A stretch of 64,000 nucleotides of DNA, from NCBI GenBank assembly GCA_963666345.1, contig OY762721.1:544001-608000 (forward strand), in the 5' to 3' direction. A program made the position numbers and the translations under genes. The notes under the pieces are model-generated. The model was given only the letters and a program-made list of their open reading frames with translations. It was not told where the DNA came from and did no database searches. The stretch is from Desulfatiglandales bacterium (GTDB lineage Bacteria > Desulfobacterota > DSM-4660 > Desulfatiglandales > Desulfatiglandaceae). Of this stretch, positions 40,762-51,139 are shown piece after piece. Every line of letters starts with the position of its first letter. The first letter of the stretch is position 1.

Positions 40762-42414
40762 ATGTTCCGGCGGATACTGGATTGTGCCAGCAGGCAAACC
40801 TCAAAAATCGCCTTTCTTGAAGAAATCCTGAAGATACTGATGGATTTTTCGGGGTGCGACTCAACCGCCTTTCTTATGCAGGACGGGAAGAAATACCACT
40901 GTTTCAAGTCCTATAAAAAAAGCGGGGACCCGTTCGATTTTGAAATCATAAATCTCATTCACGGGCAAAAGTCTCTTGAAGGGATGAAATATCTGAGAAA
41001 ATGGGGCCGGGGCATTCCCGGTTTCCCCCCTTTTTTCCGTTACAGAGATGGGGGTTTGTGGGTAAACGATACATCTGAATTTTTGGATGAATGCCCTGAC
41101 CCTGTTGTCGAGATTTTAAAGGAACTTATTCCTGCCGTATCATCATATCCTTCTGCGGCCCTTGTACCCATTGAAGCTGACGGCTCTCATGCCGGAATTT
41201 TACAACTGGGAAGCAGGAAGGCTTATCACTTCAAAGAGACTGAAACGGACAACTATAAAGGGATAATCGAAAGCATCGGCACTGCGTTGAAGGTCTGGCA
41301 GGTTCATTCAGCCCTTAATGAGCGAGTCAAGGAACTCACCTGCCACTACAATATACTGCAACTGTCCGATCAACCGGACAGGACCCTGGATGAAATTTTC
41401 AAAGGGGTTGTTGAGCTTCTTCCCCCTGCATGGCAATTCCCGGACGCTGCCACGGCCCGGATCGTATTTGACGGAGAGGTCTATGCATTGCCCGATTTTC
41501 AAAAGGCAAAAGACAGGCAATCATCCTATATAATCGTTAAGGGCAAAAAACGTGGGTTCATAGAGGTGGCATACACCGAAGATAAGCCTGAGCTGGATGA
41601 GGGCCCGTTTCTGAGGGAAGAAAGAGAGCTTATTGAAAGCGTTTCGAGAGAATTATCGCTGATCATCCTGAGAAGAGTAAGCGAAGAAGAAAAGAGCGAG
41701 CTGTTGGATCAGCTCAGACACGCCGATCGGTTGGCTATTATAGGCCAACTGGCCGCAGCCGTGGCTCATGAACTGAATGAACCACTGGCAAATATCCTGG
41801 GATTCTCTCAGCTTGCATTGAAATCGGAAGGAGTTCCCGAACAGACAAGGCAGGATATTGAGAAAATATCAGCCGCATCTCTTCATTCAAGAGAAATCAT
41901 CAAAAAATTATTGGCGTTCGCACGACAGACACCCTCAAAAAAATCCCTTGTAAGCCTGAATCAGGTTGTAAAGGAAACACTCTATTTCCTTGATTCCAGA
42001 TGCGCTAAGGAAGGCATCACCATGAAATTATCCCTCCACCCCGACATTCCGGATATCATCGCAAACGCGGGACAGCTCATGCAGGTCCTGACAAATCTGG
42101 TGGTAAATTCCATGCAGGCGATGCCCGAAGGCGGCAATCTCACCATCAGCACCCTTAACAAGGGGGATTATGTTATTCTTGCCGTGGAAGACACGGGAAT
42201 CGGCATGAGCGAGGATGTCAAGGAAAAGATTTTCACGCCTTTTTTTACAAACAAAGTCGCCGGGCAGGGAACAGGCCTGGGGCTGCCGGTCGTCCATGAC
42301 ATCATAATGGCCCATGGAGGAAGGATGAAAGTGGAAAGCGATGTCGGTCAAGGAACAAGTTTTGAGATCCGTCTGCCGGTCAACCGGCCGGAAAGGACCA
42401 GGACAGATGATTAA
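40762..42414 (+). CDS. Cytoplasmic sensor histidine kinase (GAF-like domains, HisKA, HATPase)
   Basis: H-box HELNEPL, N-box NLVVNSMQA, DTGIG, FTPFFT, GTGLGL; no TM helix. Confidence 0.92.
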   Translation: MFRRILDCASRQTSKIAFLEEILKILMDFSGCDSTAFLMQDGKKYHCFKSYKKSGDPFDFEIINLIHGQKSLEGMKYLRKWGRGIPGFPPFFRYRDGGLWVNDTSEFLDECPDPVVEILKELIPAVSSYPSAALVPIEADGSHAGILQLGSRKAYHFKETETDNYKGIIESIGTALKVWQVHSALNERVKELTCHYNILQLSDQPDRTLDEIFKGVVELLPPAWQFPDAATARIVFDGEVYALPDFQKAKDRQSSYIIVKGKKRGFIEVAYTEDKPELDEGPFLREERELIESVSRELSLIILRRVSEEEKSELLDQLRHADRLAIIGQLAAAVAHELNEPLANILGFSQLALKSEGVPEQTRQDIEKISAASLHSREIIKKLLAFARQTPSKKSLVSLNQVVKETLYFLDSRCAKEGITMKLSLHPDIPDIIANAGQLMQVLTNLVVNSMQAMPEGGNLTISTLNKGDYVILAVEDTGIGMSEDVKEKIFTPFFTNKVAGQGTGLGLPVVHDIIMAHGGRMKVESDVGQGTSFEIRLPVNRPERTRTDD

Positions 42415-43762
42415 CGACCCTTCTTCAATGAATATGGAATGCATTCTAGTCGTGGATGACGCCCCCGGCACTCTAGAGATCATCCGTCGAAATCTGACCT
42501 CAAAAGGATACCGTGTCTTTACCGCAGGCAACGTGGCGGAGGCGGTCAGTATCCTTGACACGACGATAATGGATCTGGTTGTTACCGATTTGAAGATGCC
42601 GGGAGCCGACGGATTCGATCTTTTAAGACATGTAAGGGAAAACTTCAAAGATATTGAAGTGGTTATGATAACCGGTTTTCCCAGCATCGAGGGGGCGGTC
42701 AGGGCCGTAAAGATAGGCGCGGAAGAATACCTGCCGAAACCCTTTACCGATGAAGAGCTCTTTTCCACGGTCACTCATGCATTGCAAAAACTGCGGGAGA
42801 GAAGAAATGCCCGCAATAAAACCACACCCTTTGACCATTATGGAATAATCGGGGAGTCAAAGGCGATGCGCAGTGTCTTCAGATTCATAAGAAGGGCATC
42901 TGAGACATCGGCGACAGTGCTTATATGCGGTGAAAGCGGCACCGGGAAAGAGGTCGTGGCACGGGCAATACATTACAACGGCAAAAGGGCCGCCGCACCT
43001 TTTGTTCCTGTTAACTGCGGGGCGATTCCGGAAAATCTGCTCGAAAGCGAGCTCTTCGGCTATGTAAAGGGCGCCTTTACAGGGGCTGTAGAATCGCGTG
43101 CCGGTTTTTTTCAAATCTCCGATAAAGGCACGATATTTCTGGATGAAATCAGTGAAGCAAGCCTTCCAATGCAGGTCAAACTCCTCAGGGTGCTTCAGGA
43201 TAAAGAGATATTCATGCTGGGCTCCAGCCGGTTGGCCAAGGTGGATGTCAGGGTTATGGCCGCCACAAACAGGAATCTCACCGAGCTGGTCAAAAAACGT
43301 GCCTTCAGGGAAGACCTGTTCTATCGCCTGAATGTGGTCACAATCGACATACCCCCTTTGAGGCAGAGGAGGGAAGACATAGCACCTTTAGCCCATCATA
43401 TGATCGGCAAATTTGCAAAGGAATTCGATAAAGAGCCGCCCCATATCTCAGATGAGGCTTTCAAGGCCCTTGAGACATATCAATGGCCTGGAAATGTCAG
43501 GGAATTGGAGAATATTATCCAGCGCCTGGTGGTCATGACGGAAGGCCATAAAATAGAGGTCTCGGACCTCCCCTCTTTAATGCGCTTTTCCGCCCCGAAC
43601 TGCTCAAGCCTGGATCGTTCCCTGAAGGAGGTTGAAACAGGGTACATTCGAAATGTCCTGGAAAGCGTTGACGGAAACAAGACACAGGCGGCAAGGATAC
43701 TGGGCATAGACCGCAAGACCCTTCGGGAAAAACTTAAGTCATCCGAAACAGGCGCTGCTTGA
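42407..43762 (+). CDS. Sigma54-dependent response regulator (NtrC/AtoC family)
   Basis: REC (VVDD, TDLKMP), GESGTGKE, GAFTGA, WPGNVREL, Fis-type HTH; ATG at 42407 overlaps the kinase stop. Confidence 0.93.
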   Translation: MINDPSSMNMECILVVDDAPGTLEIIRRNLTSKGYRVFTAGNVAEAVSILDTTIMDLVVTDLKMPGADGFDLLRHVRENFKDIEVVMITGFPSIEGAVRAVKIGAEEYLPKPFTDEELFSTVTHALQKLRERRNARNKTTPFDHYGIIGESKAMRSVFRFIRRASETSATVLICGESGTGKEVVARAIHYNGKRAAAPFVPVNCGAIPENLLESELFGYVKGAFTGAVESRAGFFQISDKGTIFLDEISEASLPMQVKLLRVLQDKEIFMLGSSRLAKVDVRVMAATNRNLTELVKKRAFREDLFYRLNVVTIDIPPLRQRREDIAPLAHHMIGKFAKEFDKEPPHISDEAFKALETYQWPGNVRELENIIQRLVVMTEGHKIEVSDLPSLMRFSAPNCSSLDRSLKEVETGYIRNVLESVDGNKTQAARILGIDRKTLREKLKSSETGAA

Positions 43763-43963: not shown

Positions 43964-43979
43964 TAGCACGCAAATTGCA
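43964..43979 (+). promoter_or_regulatory. Sigma54 -24/-12-like promoter TAGCACGCAAATTGCA
   Basis: Matches TGGCACG-N4-TTGCW except for GG to AG; lies between the activator gene and the operon. Confidence 0.55.
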
Positions 43980-44031: not shown

Positions 44032-44373
44032 ATGGAGATGAAAATTATGACGTCCTTGACTAAAAAAAAGCCCTGCCCCACCGAGCAGCCCAGTGGACTC
44101 TGTTTAACTTGCAACAAATTCCCAACATGTGTCTATCCAAAAAATTCGCTTAGACCTGTCTTGTTCTGCGATGAATTTGAAGGCTATGAAGACTTCCCGC
44201 CTCAGCCTGTGCGCATAATTTCGCCCTCCCGCCCTGTCGTCTCCAGTGACACTGAAGATCAAGAGGACAGCTCATTACCGCTGCTGGGACTTTGCCGGAT
44301 CTGTGAAAGGCGCCATGAATGCACATATCCCAAACCGGAAGGGGGCGTGTGGCACTGCGAAGAGTACCTGTAA
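44032..44373 (+). CDS. Small Cys-rich hypothetical protein with a duplicated GLCxxC-x5-C..C-[DE]-E-[FY] motif
   Basis: GLCLTCNKFPTC..FCDEF and GLCRICERRHEC..WHCEEY; start codon uncertain. Confidence 0.7.
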   Translation: MEMKIMTSLTKKKPCPTEQPSGLCLTCNKFPTCVYPKNSLRPVLFCDEFEGYEDFPPQPVRIISPSRPVVSSDTEDQEDSSLPLLGLCRICERRHECTYPKPEGGVWHCEEYL

Positions 44374-44429
44374 CAATAAAAAGGCCCGGTCTTTGTCCTG
44401 TATAAAAGATCTATTTCAAAAGGAGCGGC

Positions 44430-45278
44430 ATGTCAGAAGAGCGTATACTGGATATCATCAACAGGCATGAAGGGCAGCTTGGGGGCCTGATAAGCGTACT
44501 CCAGGATATTCAAAACGAATACAGCTATCTTCCTGAAAAAGCATTGAGGCTCGTGGCGGACAAGACAGGCTCCTCGCTGGTAGATATTTACGGTGTGGCT
44601 ACCTTTTACAGGTCCTTCAGCCTGAAGCAGAGGGGCAAGCACCTCATATCGGTCTGCACGGGAACCGCATGCCACGTGCGGGGGTCCGCGAATATCCTGG
44701 ATGAATTCGAGCAACGCTTGGGAATAAAGGCTGGAGAGACAACTTCGGACAAACTGATTACCCTGCAAACCGTGAATTGTCTCGGGGCGTGTGCCCTCGG
44801 TCCTATCGTGGTCGTTGACGGTCATTACTTTTCCGATGTCAAGCGGCCGATGGTGAAGCAGATCATAAAATCTGCAAAAAGCGGCCTCGACCGGGTGGAT
44901 ATCGAGACAGATGAACGGATCTTTCCTGTCGACGTGAGCTGTCCAAGATGCAACCGCAGTCTTATAGACAGAAAGGTATATATCGAAGGGTACCCGTCCA
45001 TACTGGTTATGGTCTCGTTCGGGGAAAGGCATGGCTGGCTGAGGCTTTCAAGCCTGTATGGGAGTTATTCGGTGGAGCATGAGCATGAAATACCGCCAAA
45101 AGAGGTCGTTCACTTCTTCTGCCCCTACTGTAATGGGGAACTGGCCGGGGTTTCGATCTGCGCATCCTGCGGCGCGCCAATGGTACCTATGATCGTCAAA
45201 GGGGGAGGCACGGTGCATATCTGTTCCCGCCGGGGTTGCAAAGGGCACATGCTCAACTTGAGCAAAGTCGCTTTTTAA
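44430..45278 (+). CDS. NuoE/HydC-like [2Fe-2S] subunit with a C-terminal Cys-rich extension
   Basis: GVATFY, CTGTACHVRG, CLGAC; extra CPRC, CPYC, CASC and CSRRGC motifs. Confidence 0.88.
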   Translation: MSEERILDIINRHEGQLGGLISVLQDIQNEYSYLPEKALRLVADKTGSSLVDIYGVATFYRSFSLKQRGKHLISVCTGTACHVRGSANILDEFEQRLGIKAGETTSDKLITLQTVNCLGACALGPIVVVDGHYFSDVKRPMVKQIIKSAKSGLDRVDIETDERIFPVDVSCPRCNRSLIDRKVYIEGYPSILVMVSFGERHGWLRLSSLYGSYSVEHEHEIPPKEVVHFFCPYCNGELAGVSICASCGAPMVPMIVKGGGTVHICSRRGCKGHMLNLSKVAF

Positions 45279-45334
45279 AAGCACCCCGGTCCTTTGGCTT
45301 TGATCGGGACGGAGGATATATTTCAGGTCAATCG

Positions 45335-47185
45335 ATGAGAAGACTTACATCCATAGAAGATTTCGAGGCCCTGCAGAACAGGTTGAAAGCCGAGCGGGAC
45401 GATGGTTTACCCACGATTATCATCCCGTCAGGCACATGCGGCCAGGCCAGCGGCGCAAACGACCTGATTCGGGTGGCAAAACGGGAGATACTTCAGAGAA
45501 AATTGACCCGCAGGGTCAACCTGAGAATCACCGGTTGCCACGGATTCTGCCAGATGGAGCCCTCCGTACTGGTGGAACCTGAAGGCACCTTTTATCCAAA
45601 AACAGACATGAAAGGAATGAAGAGGATAATTGATGCGGTTATAAACGGGAAGATCTTGGAAGATCTGCTATTCAAAGACCCGGATACCGGAATGCCGATC
45701 CAACGTCAACAGGATCTGCCGTTTTTCAAAAGGCAGGTCCGGACCATCATGAGCCATAATGAGAAAGTCGACCCTCTTCATGTCAACGACTACATAGGCT
45801 CAGGAAGATACTCGGCCCTGGCCGAGGTCCTGAAAAAGGGAGACCCCGGCTGGACAATCGAAGAGGTCAAAATCAGCGGGCTGCGCGGACGCGGCGGGGC
45901 GGGTTTTCCCACAGGCCTCAAATGGGAACTGCTGGCAGGGCAAAATCACGATCCCGGGAAATTTCTGGTCTGCAATGCGGATGAAGGCGATCCGGGCGCC
46001 TATATGGATCGCAGCGTTTTAGAGGGAAACCCCCACGCTATTATCGAGGGGATGATCATAGGCGCCTATGCGACCGGTGCAACAGGGGGAGTGATTTATG
46101 TCCGGAACGAATACCCTCTTGCCATAAAACATCTTATCATAGCCCTTAGGCAGGCCGTAGAGACAGGACTGCTTGGAGATAACATCCTGGGAACCGGTTT
46201 TTCTTTTCATATCCATATGGTCAGGGGGGCGGGCGCCTTCGTATGCGGAGAGGAGACAGCCCTGATCAGTTCAATAGAGGGGAAAATGGGCGAACCCAGA
46301 CAGCGTCCGCCTTTTCCCGTGCAAAAGGGAATAAACGGGAAACCGACAGCCATAAATAACGTTGAGACATGGGCAAACATACCGGTCATCTTCGACCGGG
46401 GAGGTCGTGAATTCTCCAAGACAGGGGTAGAGAATAACTCAGGCACCAAAATTTTCAGCCTCGTAGGCAAGGTCAAATACACGGGGCTGGTGGAAGTGCC
46501 GATGGGCATGAAGATTAAAGACATAGTCTACGAGATCGGAGGAGGGCCGTCGGGAAAAGCAGGAATAAAGGCGGTCCAGACCGGGGGGCCTTCGGGCGGT
46601 TGCATACCGGCCCATCTTTTCGACCTCCCCATTGATTACGACAGTCTCAAAGGGGTCGGATCGATCATGGGCTCGGGCGGCATGATCGTCATGGACGAAA
46701 AAACCTGTATGGTGGACATGGCGAAATATTTCATGAGCTTTCTGAAGGATGAGTCATGCGGCAAATGTTTTGTGTGCCGCAAGGGTATCCAGCGAATGCA
46801 TGAGATCCTGGATGACATCTCGCAAGGCAAAGCCACAATGCTGCATCTGGACCTGCTGGAAGAGTTGGCACAGGTGGTAAAAGACGCAAGCATGTGCGGC
46901 CTTGGCCAGACAGCCCCCAATCCTGTCCTGTCCACCCTCAGATACTACCGTGATGAATATGTCGCCCATATCAAGGAGAGACGCTGCCCGGCCGGTTCCT
47001 GCAAGTCCCTGATCACATATTCAATAAACGAACTCTGCACTGGCTGTCATCTCTGCAGCGGGGCATGCCCTGCAGATGCCGTTACCGGCAACAAAAAAGA
47101 GGCGCACTCCATTGACCCGGCCAAATGTGTCAGGTGCGGCGCCTGCATGAGCGTCTGCAAATTCGATGCTATAGAGGTTGTTTAA
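45335..47185 (+). CDS. NuoF/HydB-like NADH/FMN-binding subunit with N-terminal Trx-like domain and C-terminal 2x[4Fe-4S]
   Basis: GLRGRGGAGFPTG, NADEGDPGAYMD, CGEETAL, GGPSGG, CGKCFVC..CGLG, HIKERRCPAGSC, two CxxCxxCxxxC motifs; ATG at 45335 chosen over the track start. Confidence 0.92.
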   Translation: MRRLTSIEDFEALQNRLKAERDDGLPTIIIPSGTCGQASGANDLIRVAKREILQRKLTRRVNLRITGCHGFCQMEPSVLVEPEGTFYPKTDMKGMKRIIDAVINGKILEDLLFKDPDTGMPIQRQQDLPFFKRQVRTIMSHNEKVDPLHVNDYIGSGRYSALAEVLKKGDPGWTIEEVKISGLRGRGGAGFPTGLKWELLAGQNHDPGKFLVCNADEGDPGAYMDRSVLEGNPHAIIEGMIIGAYATGATGGVIYVRNEYPLAIKHLIIALRQAVETGLLGDNILGTGFSFHIHMVRGAGAFVCGEETALISSIEGKMGEPRQRPPFPVQKGINGKPTAINNVETWANIPVIFDRGGREFSKTGVENNSGTKIFSLVGKVKYTGLVEVPMGMKIKDIVYEIGGGPSGKAGIKAVQTGGPSGGCIPAHLFDLPIDYDSLKGVGSIMGSGGMIVMDEKTCMVDMAKYFMSFLKDESCGKCFVCRKGIQRMHEILDDISQGKATMLHLDLLEELAQVVKDASMCGLGQTAPNPVLSTLRYYRDEYVAHIKERRCPAGSCKSLITYSINELCTGCHLCSGACPADAVTGNKKEAHSIDPAKCVRCGACMSVCKFDAIEVV

Positions 47186-47246
47186 CGACCCGGGAAAAGC
47201 CTTCTATTGAAACAGGCTCGACCCCGGGAGTTGAGGATTTCGAATT

Positions 47247-47924
47247 ATGATAAAAATGAGCATCAACCGTTTACCCGTTTCAGTGGAAGAGGGAACGACC
47301 ATTCTGGAGGCTGCAAAATCCGTGGGTTTTCCGATCCCGACCCTCTGCTACATGGAAGGCCTGTCCCCGTATGGTGCGTGTCGGCTCTGCGTGGTGGAAA
47401 TCGGAGAAGGGCCCGGTTCCAGGCTGGTATCCTCATGTACTTATCCGGCAGAAGAGGGGCTCAAGGTTCGAACCGCCTCAACCCGAGTACTCAAGGCAAG
47501 AAGGATGATACTGGAGCTTCTCCTTGCCTCCTGTCCTCAGTCGAAGACCATTCAGGACCTTGCTTCGGCCCATGGAATCAGGCAGCAGCGATTCAGGCAG
47601 GAATATGAAGACTGCATCCTGTGCGGATTATGCGTGCGCATGTGTGAAGAGCAGATGAGGGCCAAGGCCATCGGTTTCAGGGGCAGAGGAGAGAACCGGA
47701 GCATAGGCACCCCTTTTGATGTCCAGTCGGAAACCTGCAGGTTCTGCGGCGGGTGCATGTATGTATGCCCGGCCTGCCAGTTGAGATGCACGTACACTGA
47801 ACCGGAAAAGGCTATTTGCGGGGGCTGTGAAAACCTCAGGCCTCCATGCATCGAAAAGGAACCCTTTGACGATATGATGTGCTACATGGACCCCTGTGTG
47901 GCCTGCGAGATACGGAAGGACTAA
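47247..47924 (+). CDS. HoxU/NuoG-N-terminal-like Fe-S subunit with no catalytic domain
   Basis: IPTLC..GACRLC..SC [2Fe-2S]; CILCGLCVRMC and CRFCGGCMYVCP; additional Cys-rich tail. Confidence 0.88.
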   Translation: MIKMSINRLPVSVEEGTTILEAAKSVGFPIPTLCYMEGLSPYGACRLCVVEIGEGPGSRLVSSCTYPAEEGLKVRTASTRVLKARRMILELLLASCPQSKTIQDLASAHGIRQQRFRQEYEDCILCGLCVRMCEEQMRAKAIGFRGRGENRSIGTPFDVQSETCRFCGGCMYVCPACQLRCTYTEPEKAICGGCENLRPPCIEKEPFDDMMCYMDPCVACEIRKD

Positions 47925-47945
47925 TTAAGAAAGGAGAACGGCGAC

Positions 47946-49529
47946 ATGTCACTTTCAAAAATAAACGCCTCTGCCGCTACATTGACCAAAAACAGGACTG
48001 AAGGATCCATAGTACCCTCTTCAGGCATGTGCGTGACATGCGTGGATGGCTGTATAGGCATGTGCGAAATAGGAAAGTCCGCCTACCGGGGTCATGAGGT
48101 GATTTATCCCCAGCCCTTTGGGGTCATAACCACTGCTGGAGAAAAAGATTACCCGGTGGATTACTCCCATTTTAATATCATGGGTAGCACGGTCGGGGCC
48201 CACGGCATAGAAGAAGACAGTGACAGGGCCATATTCCCATCGGTAAACCTTGAAGTGGTTATCGGCCATGACAAAGGCCTGAAATTTCGTTACCCCTGGA
48301 TCATTCCGGGAATCGGTTCAACCAATATCGCCAAACAGAACTGGGATGGGCTGGCAATAGGATCGGCACTGGCGGGGACAGGTCTCACGATAGGTGAAAA
48401 CGTCGCAGGCATGGACCAGGGCTGTAAGATAAAGCATGGGCGCGTAGTAGACACGGTGGACCTCAAAAGAAGGGTGAAGCTCTACCAGAATCACCAGCGC
48501 GACGGCTACGGGGCGATCATTCTTCAGGCCAACATAGAGGATACACGTCTGGAGGCGCAGGAATATGCCATAGAAAACCTGGGCATTGAGTGTGTCGAGC
48601 TGAAATGGGGTCAGGGAGCGAAAAGCATAGGGGGTGAGGTAAAGATCCGGGACCTGAAAAAGGCCCAAATGCTTCATGACCGTGGTTATATAGTAATTCC
48701 CGACCCGAAAGATCCGGTGGTGATCAGGGCCTTTGAGCGGGGGGCGTTCAAGGAGTTTGAAAGACACTCGCGGGTCGGGATGGTAACCGAAGAGGCATTC
48801 GCCAAACGCATCGAGGAACTGAGAAAAGCGGGTGCCCGTTATATATCTTTAAAAACAGGCGCTTATCGGCCTTCTGATCTTGCAAGGGCTCTTGCATATT
48901 CTTCCAAGTACGGGTTGGATTATCTTACCGTCGACGGTGCGGGCGGAGGCACGGGCATGAGCCCCTGGCGTATGATGAATGAATGGGGAATTCCCCCCGT
49001 ATACCTCCACTCACTCCTTTTCAGCTACGCGGAAAAACTTTCAGCAAAAGACAGATATGTGCCTCCCCTGGTGTTGGCAGGTGGATTTACCCTTGAGGAT
49101 CATATCTTCAAGGGCCTGGCCCTCGCGTCACCTTACGTCAAAATGATAGGCATGGCCAGGAGCCCGATTGCCGCAGCTATGGTAGGAAAGACTATCGGCC
49201 AGGCCATCGACGCCCATCAGCTTCCCGTTTATGTGGAACGTTTCGGCAGCTCAAAGGATGAAATTTTTGTCACATCCCCTTCACTGCGCAAAGAATTGGG
49301 TGACAAGGAATTCGAGAATCTGCCGGCCGGCGCCATAGGTCTTTATACCTATTATGAAAGGCTTGCCCATGGATTGCGTCAACTCATGGCAGGTTCAAGA
49401 AAGTTTTCCCTTGATCAGGTCAACAGGCATGATATCGCGGCATTGACGGAGGAGGCCGCCAATATAAGCGGGATCAGGTATATCATGGATGTGGACAGGG
49501 AGATGATTGAGGATATCCTTGGATGTTAG
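47946..49529 (+). CDS. Stand-alone FMN-binding glutamate-synthase-family protein (GltB2-like)
   Basis: IGEN, ELKWGQGAKSIGG, TVDGAGGGTG, LAGG; N-terminal CVTCVDGCIGMC; AAGGAG RBS. Confidence 0.85.
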   Translation: MSLSKINASAATLTKNRTEGSIVPSSGMCVTCVDGCIGMCEIGKSAYRGHEVIYPQPFGVITTAGEKDYPVDYSHFNIMGSTVGAHGIEEDSDRAIFPSVNLEVVIGHDKGLKFRYPWIIPGIGSTNIAKQNWDGLAIGSALAGTGLTIGENVAGMDQGCKIKHGRVVDTVDLKRRVKLYQNHQRDGYGAIILQANIEDTRLEAQEYAIENLGIECVELKWGQGAKSIGGEVKIRDLKKAQMLHDRGYIVIPDPKDPVVIRAFERGAFKEFERHSRVGMVTEEAFAKRIEELRKAGARYISLKTGAYRPSDLARALAYSSKYGLDYLTVDGAGGGTGMSPWRMMNEWGIPPVYLHSLLFSYAEKLSAKDRYVPPLVLAGGFTLEDHIFKGLALASPYVKMIGMARSPIAAAMVGKTIGQAIDAHQLPVYVERFGSSKDEIFVTSPSLRKELGDKEFENLPAGAIGLYTYYERLAHGLRQLMAGSRKFSLDQVNRHDIAALTEEAANISGIRYIMDVDREMIEDILGC

Positions 49530-49669: not shown

Positions 49670-51139
49670 TCAGGCGTAGTCCGGCTCCAGCCTGTTTTGA
49701 AGTGAATATCGCTCAAAAAACTCTATAAGCTCCTGCTTGATAAGATCCGCCTTTTCAAGCGCGTTCAGGTATTCATCCTTTAACAGGGTAATTTTATCCA
49801 TATTCTTCAGGAACTCCTCGCGGAACGCGTCCTTTTTTTCCATACCCCTTTCGTATTCATCCCTGAGAGAATTCAAACCGTCTTTCAATGCAATCAGGTA
49901 CTCCTCTTTAAGGGTGACGAGTCTCTCAACTGCCTTTTCATATTCACCACGCAGGCTGCACACGCTGTTTTCCCTGGCGCAGAGATATTGCTCCTTGAGT
50001 TCCTTAAGCAGCTCCTTTACCGATATTATCTTATCGACCCTGTAGGCATTGCTTCCTGCAAAGGCGAAGCCTTTATCCAGCACCCCCTTTCTGGCATTAT
50101 CGAGCGCAAGTGAAATACAGTAGGGAGCGGTCTTTATGTCGCAGCTCTTGAGACACCGCCACGCGCACTTGTGGGATTGTCTTTTGCCGGAGGCCACATC
50201 CCTCAAAAAATCGTTCTCTATGGCCCTGCCTGGCATGCCCACAGGACTCTTTATGATCTTTATGTCGCCCTTACTGCATGACACATACGACTCCTTGAAC
50301 CTTATATCCGCATCGCACTCATGGGTTGCAACAAACCTTGTCCCCATCTGAACACCCTTTGCACCCAGCTTTAGGGCGTTGTAGATATCAGCACCGGTAA
50401 AAATGCCCCCCGCGGCGATTACGGGGATTGTCCTGCGCCAATCATCCTCGTATTTCTTTATCTCGGCAACTACCCCTGGAAGGATATTTTCAAGGGCGAA
50501 ATCGGCATCATCGATCTGATCCTCTTTAAAGCCCAGGTGACCTCCCGCCTTGGGCCCTTCCACAACGACCGCGTCCGGGATGTCTGAATATTTTTTCGCC
50601 CAGGATCTGAATATAAGGCCTGCCGCCCTTACGGAACTCACGATAGGCACTACCTTGACACCGGCCGATCTCAGGTCGGCAACAGGAATTCCCTTTATCG
50701 GGAGTCCGGCCCCGAGGAATACCATATCCACCTTTTCTTCTATCGCGACCCTTAAAAGGGAACTGAAATCATTGACCGCCACCATGATGTTGACGCCGAT
50801 AATACCGGAGGTGTTTTCTCTTGCCTTTCTAATCTCCCTTCTGAGGGCGATGGCATTGGCGTCCCTGTTTTTCGCATAATATTCAGGATCAAGCATACCT
50901 ATGGAATTGGCTGCAATAATACCGATCCCTCCTTCATTTGCGACCGCTGAGGCGAGGCCTGAAAGGGATATTCCGACCCCCATTCCACCCTGTATGATCG
51001 GCAGCCTTGACACTGTATCACCGATCCTCAATTTGGGCATTGTGAGCCATCCGATCCTAGAGATATCAAATTTAGGCCATTCTATGTTATTAAAGCATAT
51101 CTTGGGAAGCTGGAACTTGGGAAATTTAATGAAATCCAC
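49670..51139 (-). CDS. Nitronate-monooxygenase/FabK-family FMN protein (FabX-like Cys motif) with a C-terminal coiled-coil extension
   Basis: IIQGGMGVGIS, VVEGPKAGGHLG, VQMGTRF, SPVGMPGRA, CAWRCLKSC..YCI; GTG start after AAGGAG. Confidence 0.85.
   Translation of the reverse strand: MDFIKFPKFQLPKICFNNIEWPKFDISRIGWLTMPKLRIGDTVSRLPIIQGGMGVGISLSGLASAVANEGGIGIIAANSIGMLDPEYYAKNRDANAIALRREIRKARENTSGIIGVNIMVAVNDFSSLLRVAIEEKVDMVFLGAGLPIKGIPVADLRSAGVKVVPIVSSVRAAGLIFRSWAKKYSDIPDAVVVEGPKAGGHLGFKEDQIDDADFALENILPGVVAEIKKYEDDWRRTIPVIAAGGIFTGADIYNALKLGAKGVQMGTRFVATHECDADIRFKESYVSCSKGDIKIIKSPVGMPGRAIENDFLRDVASGKRQSHKCAWRCLKSCDIKTAPYCISLALDNARKGVLDKGFAFAGSNAYRVDKIISVKELLKELKEQYLCARENSVCSLRGEYEKAVERLVTLKEEYLIALKDGLNSLRDEYERGMEKKDAFREEFLKNMDKITLLKDEYLNALEKADLIKQELIEFFERYSLQNRLEPDYA

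Follow-up and report, generated by a model that had tools for sequence, protein, structure and literature searches.

A Bfu-type operon with a remote glutamate-synthase-like FMN subunit in a Desulfatiglandales genome and its relatives: a candidate ammonia-dependent aminating complex

The stretch of DNA analyzed here, referred to as the window, comprises 64,000 nt from a Desulfatiglandales bacterium (assembly GCA_963666345.1, contig OY762721.1, positions 544,001-608,000 of the forward strand), whose genome is a single contig of 4.16 Mb. Between 40.7 and 49.5 kb of the window, seven genes lie on the + strand, namely those of a sensor histidine kinase and a response regulator, followed by a run of five genes coding for a small Cys-rich protein, for NuoE-like, NuoF-like and HoxU-like subunits, and for a flavin mononucleotide (FMN) TIM-barrel protein remotely related to glutamate synthase (GltS), which we call GltB2L (Table 1). 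The NuoE/NuoF/HoxU-like trio clearly belongs, judged from its sequences, to the bifurcating HydABC/Bfu family, and its subunits are therefore named BfuC, BfuB and BfuA below. The operon is very widespread and apparently undescribed, and its gene arrangement is conserved far beyond chance. We propose, at somewhat less than an even chance, that it encodes a sigma-54-controlled Bfu-type complex that would aminate 2-oxoglutarate reductively with free ammonia. Compared to an earlier reading of the same DNA (the first-pass annotation), the nitrogen-gene context, the nesting of the operon-linked proteins in a tree, the counts of genomes that lack glutamate synthase (GOGAT), and the split between a short (ferredoxin) and a long (GltD) form are new.

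Conservation of the operon and its Bfu core

A word-indexed search with GltB2L gave at least 8000 significant protein clusters, of which the best 120 matches are 77-100% identical and spread over many phyla, with "FMN-binding glutamate synthase family protein" as the most specific name that any of them bears. An exhaustive search of 50%-identity representatives found 1047 relatives at E up to 0.001, of which 168 reach E up to 1e-30, and at least 596 species genomes (one genome per species) encode a relative. Synteny was counted over the best 80 of these at least 596 loci (75-83% identity), for each gene over the loci with enough upstream DNA; being the closest relatives, they describe the window-type clade only. 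The HoxU-like gene directly precedes the GltB2L gene, separated from it by about 20 nt, in 76 of 76 loci, and further upstream follow the NuoF-like gene (63/63), the NuoE-like gene (60/60), the Cys-rich gene (45/56) and a homolog of the sigma-54 regulator with over 50% identity (42/52). A histidine kinase homolog (40-59% identity) lies upstream of the operon in most of the long loci, and no conserved gene was found downstream in related loci beyond regulator genes. GltB2L itself is 76-86% identical among Planctomycetota, Zixibacteria, KSB1, Acidobacteriota, Bacteroidota, Desulfobacterota, anammox bacteria and others, which places it among the most conserved uncharacterized proteins. In addition, contigs of one marine-sediment metatranscriptome match several parts of the operon at 90-98% identity, and a single contig crosses the junction of the Cys-rich and NuoE-like genes; these contigs come from relatives and may include DNA carry-over, so that they hint at most at transcription of the operon in marine sediment.

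Two forms of the NuoF-like subunit were found. A short form, as in the window, occurs in 14 of 63 loci, and in the other 49 the protein is about 1050-1100 aa long, with a C-terminal GltD-like Fer4_20 + Pyr_redox_2 unit (domains shown in L014) replacing the ferredoxin domain. The first-pass annotation had described a tight run of Cys-rich, NuoE-like, NuoF-like, HoxU-like and FMN GltB-domain genes, and indeed five open reading frames stand there on one strand, separated by 56, 56, 61, and 21 nt. Its suggested synteny check was run, and the order of NuoE, NuoF, HoxU and the GltS-like FMN gene proved to be kept across phyla. Its statement that there is no H-cluster, NiFe, molybdopterin, membrane Nuo, GltB1, GltB3 or GltD part agrees with Pfam and NCBIfam scans of the five genes and their neighbors, which detected no H-cluster, NiFe, molybdopterin, membrane Nuo, amidotransferase (GATase), GXGXG or GltD domain. 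As to the missing GltD partner, however, the statement is true for the window and does not extend to the related loci, most of which have NuoF fused to a GltD-like domain.

BfuB combines a thioredoxin-like domain at its N-terminus with an FMN/NADH domain, a [4Fe-4S] site and a His/Cys metal site, and has a 2x[4Fe-4S] ferredoxin domain at its C-terminus. Among solved structures, its nine best matches are each the B subunit of a Bfu-type complex (7T2R, 9BOV, 7Q4V, 9N5U, 8A6T, 8OH5, 9MQX, 7Q4W, and 7P5H), with scores of 607-707 bits (7T2R_B 707, 7P5H_B 607); eight of these chains align near full length, and 7Q4W_B (615 bits) is a truncated chain of 470 aa. The non-bifurcating NAD-dependent FDH-beta and complex-I NuoF reach at most 379 bits, with both terminal domains missing. 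According to one study, four features of Thermococcus NfnB, namely A201, M203, F281, and the GGPSG loop, are kept in Bfu enzymes and absent in non-bifurcating enzymes (PMC12018979). The alignment with 9N5U_B places identical residues in the window's subunit at A201, M203, F281, GGPSG 396-400, and D195, and the motifs GDPGAYM, GAGAFVCGEE, and GGPSGG are retained. Moreover, C458, C475, C478, C481, C521, H545, C551, and C556 of BfuB are kept in 65 of 65 sequences. The first-pass annotation had assigned the trio to the HydABC/Bfu type, pointing to GDPGAYM, H-x5-C-x4-C and the C-terminal ferredoxin domain; all three are present in the NuoF-like subunit, and both the nine best solved relatives and the signature residues speak for the same assignment.

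The two smaller subunits of the trio combine familiar domains with Cys-rich extensions. BfuC has the bifurcating HydC chain 8A6T_C as its best solved relative (E 3.9e-42), and it carries a C-terminal extension of 130 aa that is zinc-ribbon-like and holds eight conserved Cys; a Pfam scan of this tail at E up to 10 gave weak zinc-ribbon matches and nothing more. The domain residues C76, C81, C117, and C121, as well as C171, C174, C231, C234, C244, C247, C265, and C270, are found in 57 of 57 sequences. Among solved structures, BfuA comes closest to 9MQX_A (E 9e-35), which is the chain-G-like subunit, 247 aa long, of the WOR-Bfu entry. The [2Fe-2S] Cys of BfuA (C34, C45, C48, and C64) and two CxxCxxCxxxC motifs are present in 77 of 77 sequences, and its C-terminal tail of about 50 aa, for which Pfam at E up to 10 gave nothing useful, has eight further conserved Cys (75-77 of 77). 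Together with the N-terminal Cys of GltB2L described below, the extra invariant Cys of the BfuC and BfuA tails fit an added electron path.

The small Cys-rich protein encoded by the first gene of the run is made of two repeats of the form GLCxxC-x5-C-x11/12-CEE[FY], with C24, C27, C33, C46, C88, C91, C97, and C109 invariant in 40 sequences. Its homologs number 3561 (E up to 0.001), and the best 120 of these carry neither a Pfam domain nor an informative name; the protein itself gave nothing useful in Pfam at E up to 10, and its AlphaFold 2 model is poor (pLDDT 59.4, pTM 0.23). It may serve as a carrier of Fe-S or Zn or as an assembly subunit. Many of its homologs (P0272-P0300) are 220-228 aa, about twice as long, which suggests duplicated or fused two-repeat units.

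The literature allows the operon to be placed among known Bfu enzymes. In the classification of Schut et al. (2022), Type 2 Bfu enzymes possess a small BfuA fed by a separate catalytic subunit (PMC9304861), and by its sequences the operon would correspond to a Type-2-like Bfu enzyme. With WorABCSL, a Type 2 Bfu (PDB 9MQX; PMC9304861, PMC12018979), it has in common a full BfuB with the signature residues, a [2Fe-2S] BfuC, a small BfuA without catalytic domain that is closest to 9MQX_A, and a separate subunit, presumed to be catalytic in our case, that would be fed via BfuA. The operon differs in that this subunit has the form of an FMN TIM barrel bearing a four-Cys motif at its N-terminus and is not of tungstopterin, NiFe, FeFe, Fdh, CODH or POR type, in the Cys-rich tails added to BfuC and BfuA, in the extra eight-Cys small protein, and, for most of its relatives, in the swap of the BfuB ferredoxin domain for GltD. 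The Nfn-Bfu/Stn enzymes (NfnABC of Caldicellulosiruptor and Thermococcus, StnABC of Sporomusa; 9BOV, 9N5U, and 8OH5) share the BfuBC core, with BfuB scores of 645-686 bits, and a GltD/NfnB-like NADPH-FAD module. Their GltD-like domain resides in the A subunit, whereas in the operon it is confined to the long form, where it is fused to the BfuB C-terminus; the window's short form is without GltD, and the FMN catalytic subunit is additional. The Bfu types given in the available text of Schut et al. (2022) are hydrogenase, Nfn, F420, Wor, Fdh, Bam, Codh, Por, Mbh, Nuo, and Rub, and no glutamate-synthase-type module appears in the main text and one supplement (PMC9304861), further supplementary tables of which might list one. 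We found no description in the literature of a Bfu enzyme with a GltS-like subunit, in keeping with the first-pass annotation, which knew of no characterized example.

GltB2L and its wider family

GltB2L matches PF01645 with 34.6 bits (cut-off 20.4) over 74 residues (279-352), which correspond to profile positions 185-257 of 369, compared to 310 bits for the true GltB2 of the same genome. By sequence it appears to be a remote relative of the glutamate-synthase FMN domain and not an ordinary GltB2; the earlier designation "FMN GltB domain" thus holds in so far as the match exceeds the cut-off, and goes too far in so far as the match is weak and partial. An hhalign comparison with the genome's own GltB2 (probability 96%, E 3.9e-9, 187 columns) pairs ELKWGQGAK with EFKYAQGAK and DGAGGGTGMSP with DGSYGGTGAAP, that is, the QGAK and GGTGxSP motifs, and a search of the ESM Atlas gave only "putative glutamate synthase" clusters. 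The N-terminus carries C29-x2-C32-x3-C36-x3-C40, with all four Cys in 80 of 80 close loci and the C-x2-C-x3-C-x3-C motif in 73 of 73 proteins of the wider family; Pfam at E up to 10 gave nothing useful for this region. The AlphaFold 2 model (pLDDT 84.6, pTM 0.87) is not confident for residues 1-34, which cover part of the Cys motif region, and Foldseek and a wide structural search place it in the FMN-linked TIM-barrel superfamily, with the GltS chains 7MFM_G and 1OFD_A among the matches. GltB2L is hence a divergent branch whose sequence motifs point to GltS and whose fold by itself does not settle the chemistry. With glutamate synthases (NADPH-GltS alpha/beta, Fd-GltS, and split GltB1/B2/B3) it shares the FMN TIM barrel, the QGAK and GGTGxSP motifs, a pairing with GltD in most relatives, an Fe-S cluster presumed to feed the FMN, and, in its sister subfamilies, a neighborhood of nitrogen genes; it differs from them by lacking the amidotransferase, central and GXGXG domains (Pfam found no amidotransferase or GXGXG part in the protein), by its Cys ligands at the N-terminus, and by electrons that would arrive through a Bfu module.

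The operon-linked proteins are part of a larger family. Of 201 genomes drawn evenly from the window's phylum, 109 hold a family member (E up to 1e-100), and the matches fall in identity bands of about 77, 65-67, 52-56, 46-51, and 40-45%. Neighborhoods were read at 73 loci, consisting of 72 fetched regions and a paralog from the window's own genome, with about one region per genus and duplicates in three genera; matches at contig ends (e.g., G020, G021, G105, G187, G205, G148, and G179) and most second matches per genus are omitted. Bfu genes in any orientation stand beside a family member in 10 of the 73 loci. Seven of these have them in the same operon, and these are all seven of the proteins with at least 60% identity; the remaining three have the trio on the opposite strand. 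The nrpR gene, mostly divergent and about 1.3 kb upstream, adjoins a family member at 20 of 73 loci, glnA at 8, and amt at 6, and any of the three at 31 of 73 (30 of 70 after same-genus, same-band duplicates are removed), where our own arithmetic gives a chance below 1% for a gene of one or two copies to lie within 6 kb of a given gene in a genome of 3-4 Mb. NrpR is described as a nitrogen repressor responding to 2-oxoglutarate (PMC9765008). Single loci add a NifA-like GAF-sigma-54 activator (TIGR01817, 527.2 bits against a cut-off of 528.85), isocitrate dehydrogenase, NAD synthase, and an N-acetylglutamate-synthase-like gene. For the Bfu-linked form at 64-67% identity, one of two genera has nrpR directly upstream of the operon (L093, L100). 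In a quick maximum-likelihood tree of 82 rows, with midpoint root, SH-aLRT support only, and L094, L120, L125, and L129 dropped for internal stops, the 20 operon-linked proteins form a single clade (SH-aLRT 100), and their sister clade consists of 19 stand-alone proteins, nine of them nitrogen-linked (support of the union 97). The operon clade thus appears as a branch nested in the larger GltB2L family.

Several loci of this family show further arrangements. The paralog in the window's own genome (L008 5028-6689, - strand; G000:C1:3835036-3836625) is a stand-alone gene for a protein of 553 aa, 41-45% identical, with the same N-terminal CTLCRADCKGKC-type motif. It stands next to selA and to the genes for adenylate kinase and phosphoglycerate mutase, and its vicinity holds neither Bfu nor nitrogen genes. 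In L109 (G012), L114 (G036), and L154 (G174), a NuoE/NuoF/HoxU-like trio lies less than 5 kb from a stand-alone family gene (47-53% identity) on the opposite strand, so that the association with Bfu may have arisen or persisted in several subfamilies. Two adjacent family genes, 40-43% identical to the window's protein, occur in L116 (G041:C83), and in L159 (G056:C30) a Bfu-linked copy at 67% identity lies about 5 kb from a copy at 54%. A gene for a 457-aa HTH_3/HTH_31 + cupin regulator adjoins stand-alone family genes in L096 (6669-8042, - strand) and similarly in L092, L097, L103, L105, L138, L145, and L153; recurrent "unknown" open reading frames beside stand-alone homologs turned out to be shadow frames of this regulator gene on the other strand. 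Long fusions that were apparent in L131 and L147 held no extra domain.

Five complete operon-bearing chromosomes of other phyla (L014, L057, L062, L069, and L080) were searched, where PF01645 finds only GltB2L (37-44 bits) and, in four of the five, a match below 26 bits; neither PF01493 (GXGXG) nor PF00310 (GATase_2) gave a match in any of the five, and all five encode glutamine synthetase (GS) and glutamate dehydrogenase (GDH). The same searches of control genomes detected PF01645 in 14 of 14, GXGXG in 14 of 14, and GATase_2 in 13 of 14. Because GXGXG and GATase_2 are found in none of the five complete chromosomes, GltB2L does not need GltB1 or GltB3, and the dependence on such subunits encoded elsewhere, which the first-pass annotation had named among the findings that would overturn its proposal, did not appear. 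GXGXG is present in all five operon-bearing genomes of the window's phylum and in three of five further operon-bearing genomes whose completeness was not established, the other two giving no match. The window's genome has a canonical split GOGAT, consisting of the ferredoxin-fused GltB2 of 310 bits beside a GATase+GXGXG fusion, close to glnA. This region (L007 3589-14440; G000:C1:1209000-1224000) holds in order glnA, a class-II tRNA-synthetase-like gene, MvhD (FlpD), MetV-like (DUF5981) and MetF-like genes, and then genes for a second GltS-like protein of 464 aa (69.6 bits), the ferredoxin-fused GltB2, and the 881-aa GATase+GXGXG fusion.

Proposed function and competing explanations

In the proposed aminating complex, BfuB, with its FMN, and BfuC would make up a core serving both NADH, which would enter at the BfuB FMN, and a low-potential partner. 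The low-potential partner would be ferredoxin in the window, via the C-terminal 2x[4Fe-4S] domain of BfuB, and NAD(P)H in most relatives, via the GltD-like domain at the same place. The Fe-S chain of BfuA and its Cys-rich tail would pass electrons to the N-terminal Cys cluster of GltB2L, presumed to be the catalytic subunit, and then to its FMN, which would reduce 2-iminoglutarate, formed from 2-oxoglutarate and free ammonia, to glutamate without any amidotransferase. The kinase and the NtrC-type sigma-54 activator that belong to the operon would drive its expression. An alternative coupling is equally open, in which the exergonic amination would drive the NADH-dependent reduction of ferredoxin or NADP+. 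It is from the genes that we infer the joint complex, the direction of the electrons, the substrate, and bifurcation or confurcation. NAD(P)H-dependent GDH is unfavorable at micromolar ammonium, and GS-GOGAT costs ATP; added electrons at the level of ferredoxin would give ATP-free assimilation with a high driving force. It is conceivable, yet rather doubtful, that the operon gives energy-limited anaerobes a third way to assimilate ammonium, one that spends no ATP: the Bfu module would collect electrons from NADH and from reduced ferredoxin (or NADPH) and with them drive an amidotransferase-free glutamate synthase able to fix ammonia even where it is scarce. The stand-alone members of the family, which share the N-terminal Cys motif and stand under NrpR/NifA-type control, would then be ferredoxin- and ammonia-dependent glutamate synthases.

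A number of observations weigh against this proposal. Regarding the catalytic subunit, phmmer with the single GltB2L sequence against solved structures gave no credible match, and the family profile matched de novo TIM barrels, with GltS only at E 0.08. The highest structural Z-scores of the model belong to 5ZZP (25.3), 1HUV (25.2), 1VCF (25.1), and 1FCB (24.5), representing mandelate oxidase/dehydrogenase, type-2 isopentenyl diphosphate isomerase (IDI-2) and flavocytochrome b2, followed by IMPDH and GMP reductase (Z 21-23); Azospirillum GltS (6S6S_A) has Z 19.6, although its structural alignment is the longest, 341 residues, which speaks for GltS homology. The [3Fe-4S] ligands of canonical GltS lie inside the synthase domain, and since no Cys outside the N-terminal motif is conserved in 80 GltB2L sequences, this internal Fe-S site appears not to be kept. 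Regarding the genomic context, the 80 window-type loci include one with nrpR and none with glnA or amt, and therefore the nitrogen link rests on the sister subfamilies. The window's genome has GDH and GS besides its GOGAT, and GXGXG is present in 8 of 15 other operon-bearing genomes and absent from seven, so the operon is not a simple replacement of GOGAT. In L096 and L155 a family gene even shares a cluster with canonical GltB2 and GltB1/B3, which argues for a distinct role. Regarding the Bfu module and its control, the N-terminal domain of BfuB, where four Cys ligands would be expected for a [2Fe-2S] (B5) site, has only three Cys (C35, C68, and C72), with C35 in 43 of 65 sequences, and the window's own promoter candidate (43964), TAGCAC-N5-TTGCA, has AG instead of the consensus GG at -24. 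Lastly, NADH already suffices to make the reductive amination of 2-oxoglutarate (about -130 mV) exergonic, and the third substrates of the characterized Bfu enzymes in the studies cited here lie between NAD and ferredoxin in potential. As for the B5 site, one study reports Zn in it in one active Bfu enzyme and describes the site as dispensable (PMC12018979).

Some of these points would equally suit the same Bfu-type complex acting on another substrate, such as a 2-oxo/imino or 2-hydroxy acid, an N-alkyl amino acid or a small oxidant, in which case the GltS label would reflect superfamily resemblance; this is a serious possibility, still well below an even chance. The fold is at least as near to alpha-hydroxy-acid oxidases and dehydrogenases, IDI-2 and IMPDH as to GltS, PF01645 matches only in part, the canonical Fe-S site and the amidotransferase and GXGXG domains are missing, and the window-type loci have their own two-component system and no nitrogen genes. 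GltS-domain homologs with other chemistry do exist, for example N-methylglutamate synthase. On the contrary, the FMN alpha-hydroxy-acid enzymes and IDI-2, which share the barrel and give the highest Z, are only 12-16% identical and have neither the Fe-S motif nor such an operon context; PF01070 (FMN_dh) does not match GltB2L at E up to 0.01, and the motifs that do align are those of GltS. Moreover, sister subfamilies are embedded in nrpR/glnA/amt clusters, the fusion with GltD in 49 of 63 loci would recreate the alpha/beta module pairing of NADPH-GltS, and the conserved genes of the operon include neither a substrate-specific transporter nor an accessory enzyme, which fits a central metabolite. 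The link to amino acids and ammonia drawn by the first-pass annotation therefore gains from the 31 of 73 related-subfamily loci with nrpR, glnA or amt and is weakened by a barrel about as near to alpha-hydroxy-acid oxidases and IDI-2.

The remaining explanations concern the complex, its direction, and its partners. We consider it unlikely that no stable holo-complex forms and that the trio, perhaps with the Cys-rich protein as carrier, supplies or balances reduced ferredoxin or NADPH for a co-expressed, free-standing and ferredoxin-dependent GltB2L. Such an arrangement would suit the 63 of 73 family loci that have no adjoining Bfu genes, all of which keep the Cys motif, so that GltB2L can work with a soluble donor, as well as the three opposite-strand trios, which are not co-transcribed; also the long form NuoF-GltD with NuoE and HoxU has the domain set of an Nfn-Bfu-like transhydrogenase even without GltB2L (PMC12018979). 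Against it stand the invariant order from the HoxU-like to the GltB2L gene, the monophyly of operon-linked GltB2L at high identity across phyla, the clade-specific Cys-rich extensions of BfuA and BfuC, and the fact that the short form without GltB2L has no third substrate site. A catabolic deaminating dehydrogenase, oxidizing glutamate or another amino acid and reducing NAD+ together with ferredoxin or NADP+, an option that the first-pass annotation had brought up, is quite unlikely: many carriers are, by their record titles, protein- or polymer-degrading anaerobes and GltS chemistry is formally reversible, but glutamate oxidation (about -130 mV) reducing both NAD+ (-320 mV) and ferredoxin is strongly uphill, GDH for deamination is already present in all five complete genomes and in the window's genome, and the sister subfamilies stand with glnA and amt under NrpR- or NifA-like control. 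Finally, an ordinary split, archaeal-type glutamate synthase, in which GltB2L would borrow GltB1/GltB3 from elsewhere and use glutamine, is highly improbable and close to refuted. A GATase+GXGXG fusion exists elsewhere in the window's genome and about half of the 15 other carriers have GXGXG; that fusion, however, is encoded directly beside its own canonical GltB2 near glnA, both domains are missing from the five complete chromosomes and found in nearly all controls, and two more carriers of uncertain completeness lack GXGXG.

If the proposed synthesis of glutamate from free ammonia with low-potential electrons is true, the picture of GDH and GS-GOGAT is incomplete for many bacteria of sediments and digesters, metabolic models of uncultured phyla mis-assign nitrogen and redox fluxes, and the Bfu family gains a new third reaction as well as a new domain arrangement, the BfuB-GltD fusion. 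The short five-gene form in a complete genome makes a compact target for expression and assay.

Gene calls, regulation and neighboring genes

The five-gene run is separated from the response regulator by an intergenic region of 270 nt, in which a candidate sigma-54 promoter is located. Between the regulator and the NuoE-like gene, 24 of 43 related loci have the -24/-12 pattern NNGCA[CT]-N5-[CT]TGC[ATC], in each of the 24 with GG at -24, where about 0.03-0.04 matches per locus are expected by chance (own arithmetic). The best NCBIfam match of the response regulator is TIGR01818 ntrC with 438.7 bits, below the cut-off of 558.6; as the REC domain starts only at residue 35, translation probably sets in at a later ATG. 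A TTG at 45236 was considered as the start of the NuoF-like gene and set aside in favor of the ATG at 45335, as it would overlap the preceding gene.

Table 1. Features of the operon and of its surroundings in the window (positions in nt; lengths in amino acids, aa).
Feature	Position	Strand	Domains or remarks
Large protein, 2010 aa	34261-40293	-	NIDO, three DUF5801, VWA, RTX calcium-binding repeats
Sensor histidine kinase	40762..42414	+	Pfam HisKA + HATPase_c, weak GAF match
NtrC-family sigma-54-dependent response regulator	42341..43762	+	Pfam REC + Sigma54_activat + HTH_8
Candidate sigma-54 (-24/-12) promoter TAGCACGCAAATTGCA	43964..43979	+	68 nt 5′ of first ATG
Small Cys-rich protein, 113 aa	44032..44373	+	no Pfam or NCBIfam match
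BfuC/HydC-type NuoE-like [2Fe-2S] subunit, 282 aa	44430..45278	+	PF01257, 160.8 bits
BfuB/HydB-type NuoF-like subunit, 616 aa from ATG	45335..47185	+	Complex1_51K, SLBB, NADH_4Fe-4S, C-terminal 2x[4Fe-4S]
Small BfuA (HoxU/NuoG-N-like), 225 aa	47247..47924	+	Fer2_4 + 4Fe-4S dicluster
GltB2L, FMN TIM-barrel protein, 527 aa	47946..49529	+	PF01645, its only family match
NMO/FabK-like FMN protein	49670-51139	-	PF03060, 190.5 bits
ADP-forming acetyl-CoA-synthetase-like protein fused to GNAT domain, 890 aa	53328-56000	-	CoA_binding, Succ_CoA_lig, ATP-grasp_5, GNAT

Other neighbors of the operon include a Na/Pi transporter gene and a convergent NMO/FabK-like gene. The latter was considered as an operon partner and rejected, since none of the 80 related loci has one and it is therefore not part of the system; its product has a C-terminal tail of about 100 aa that appears repetitive and coiled-coil-like. 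On the opposite strand, just upstream of the regulator pair, the 2010-aa NIDO/RTX protein is probably a large secreted adhesin-like protein, and the architecture of the 890-aa protein is that of a Pat-type protein acetyltransferase.

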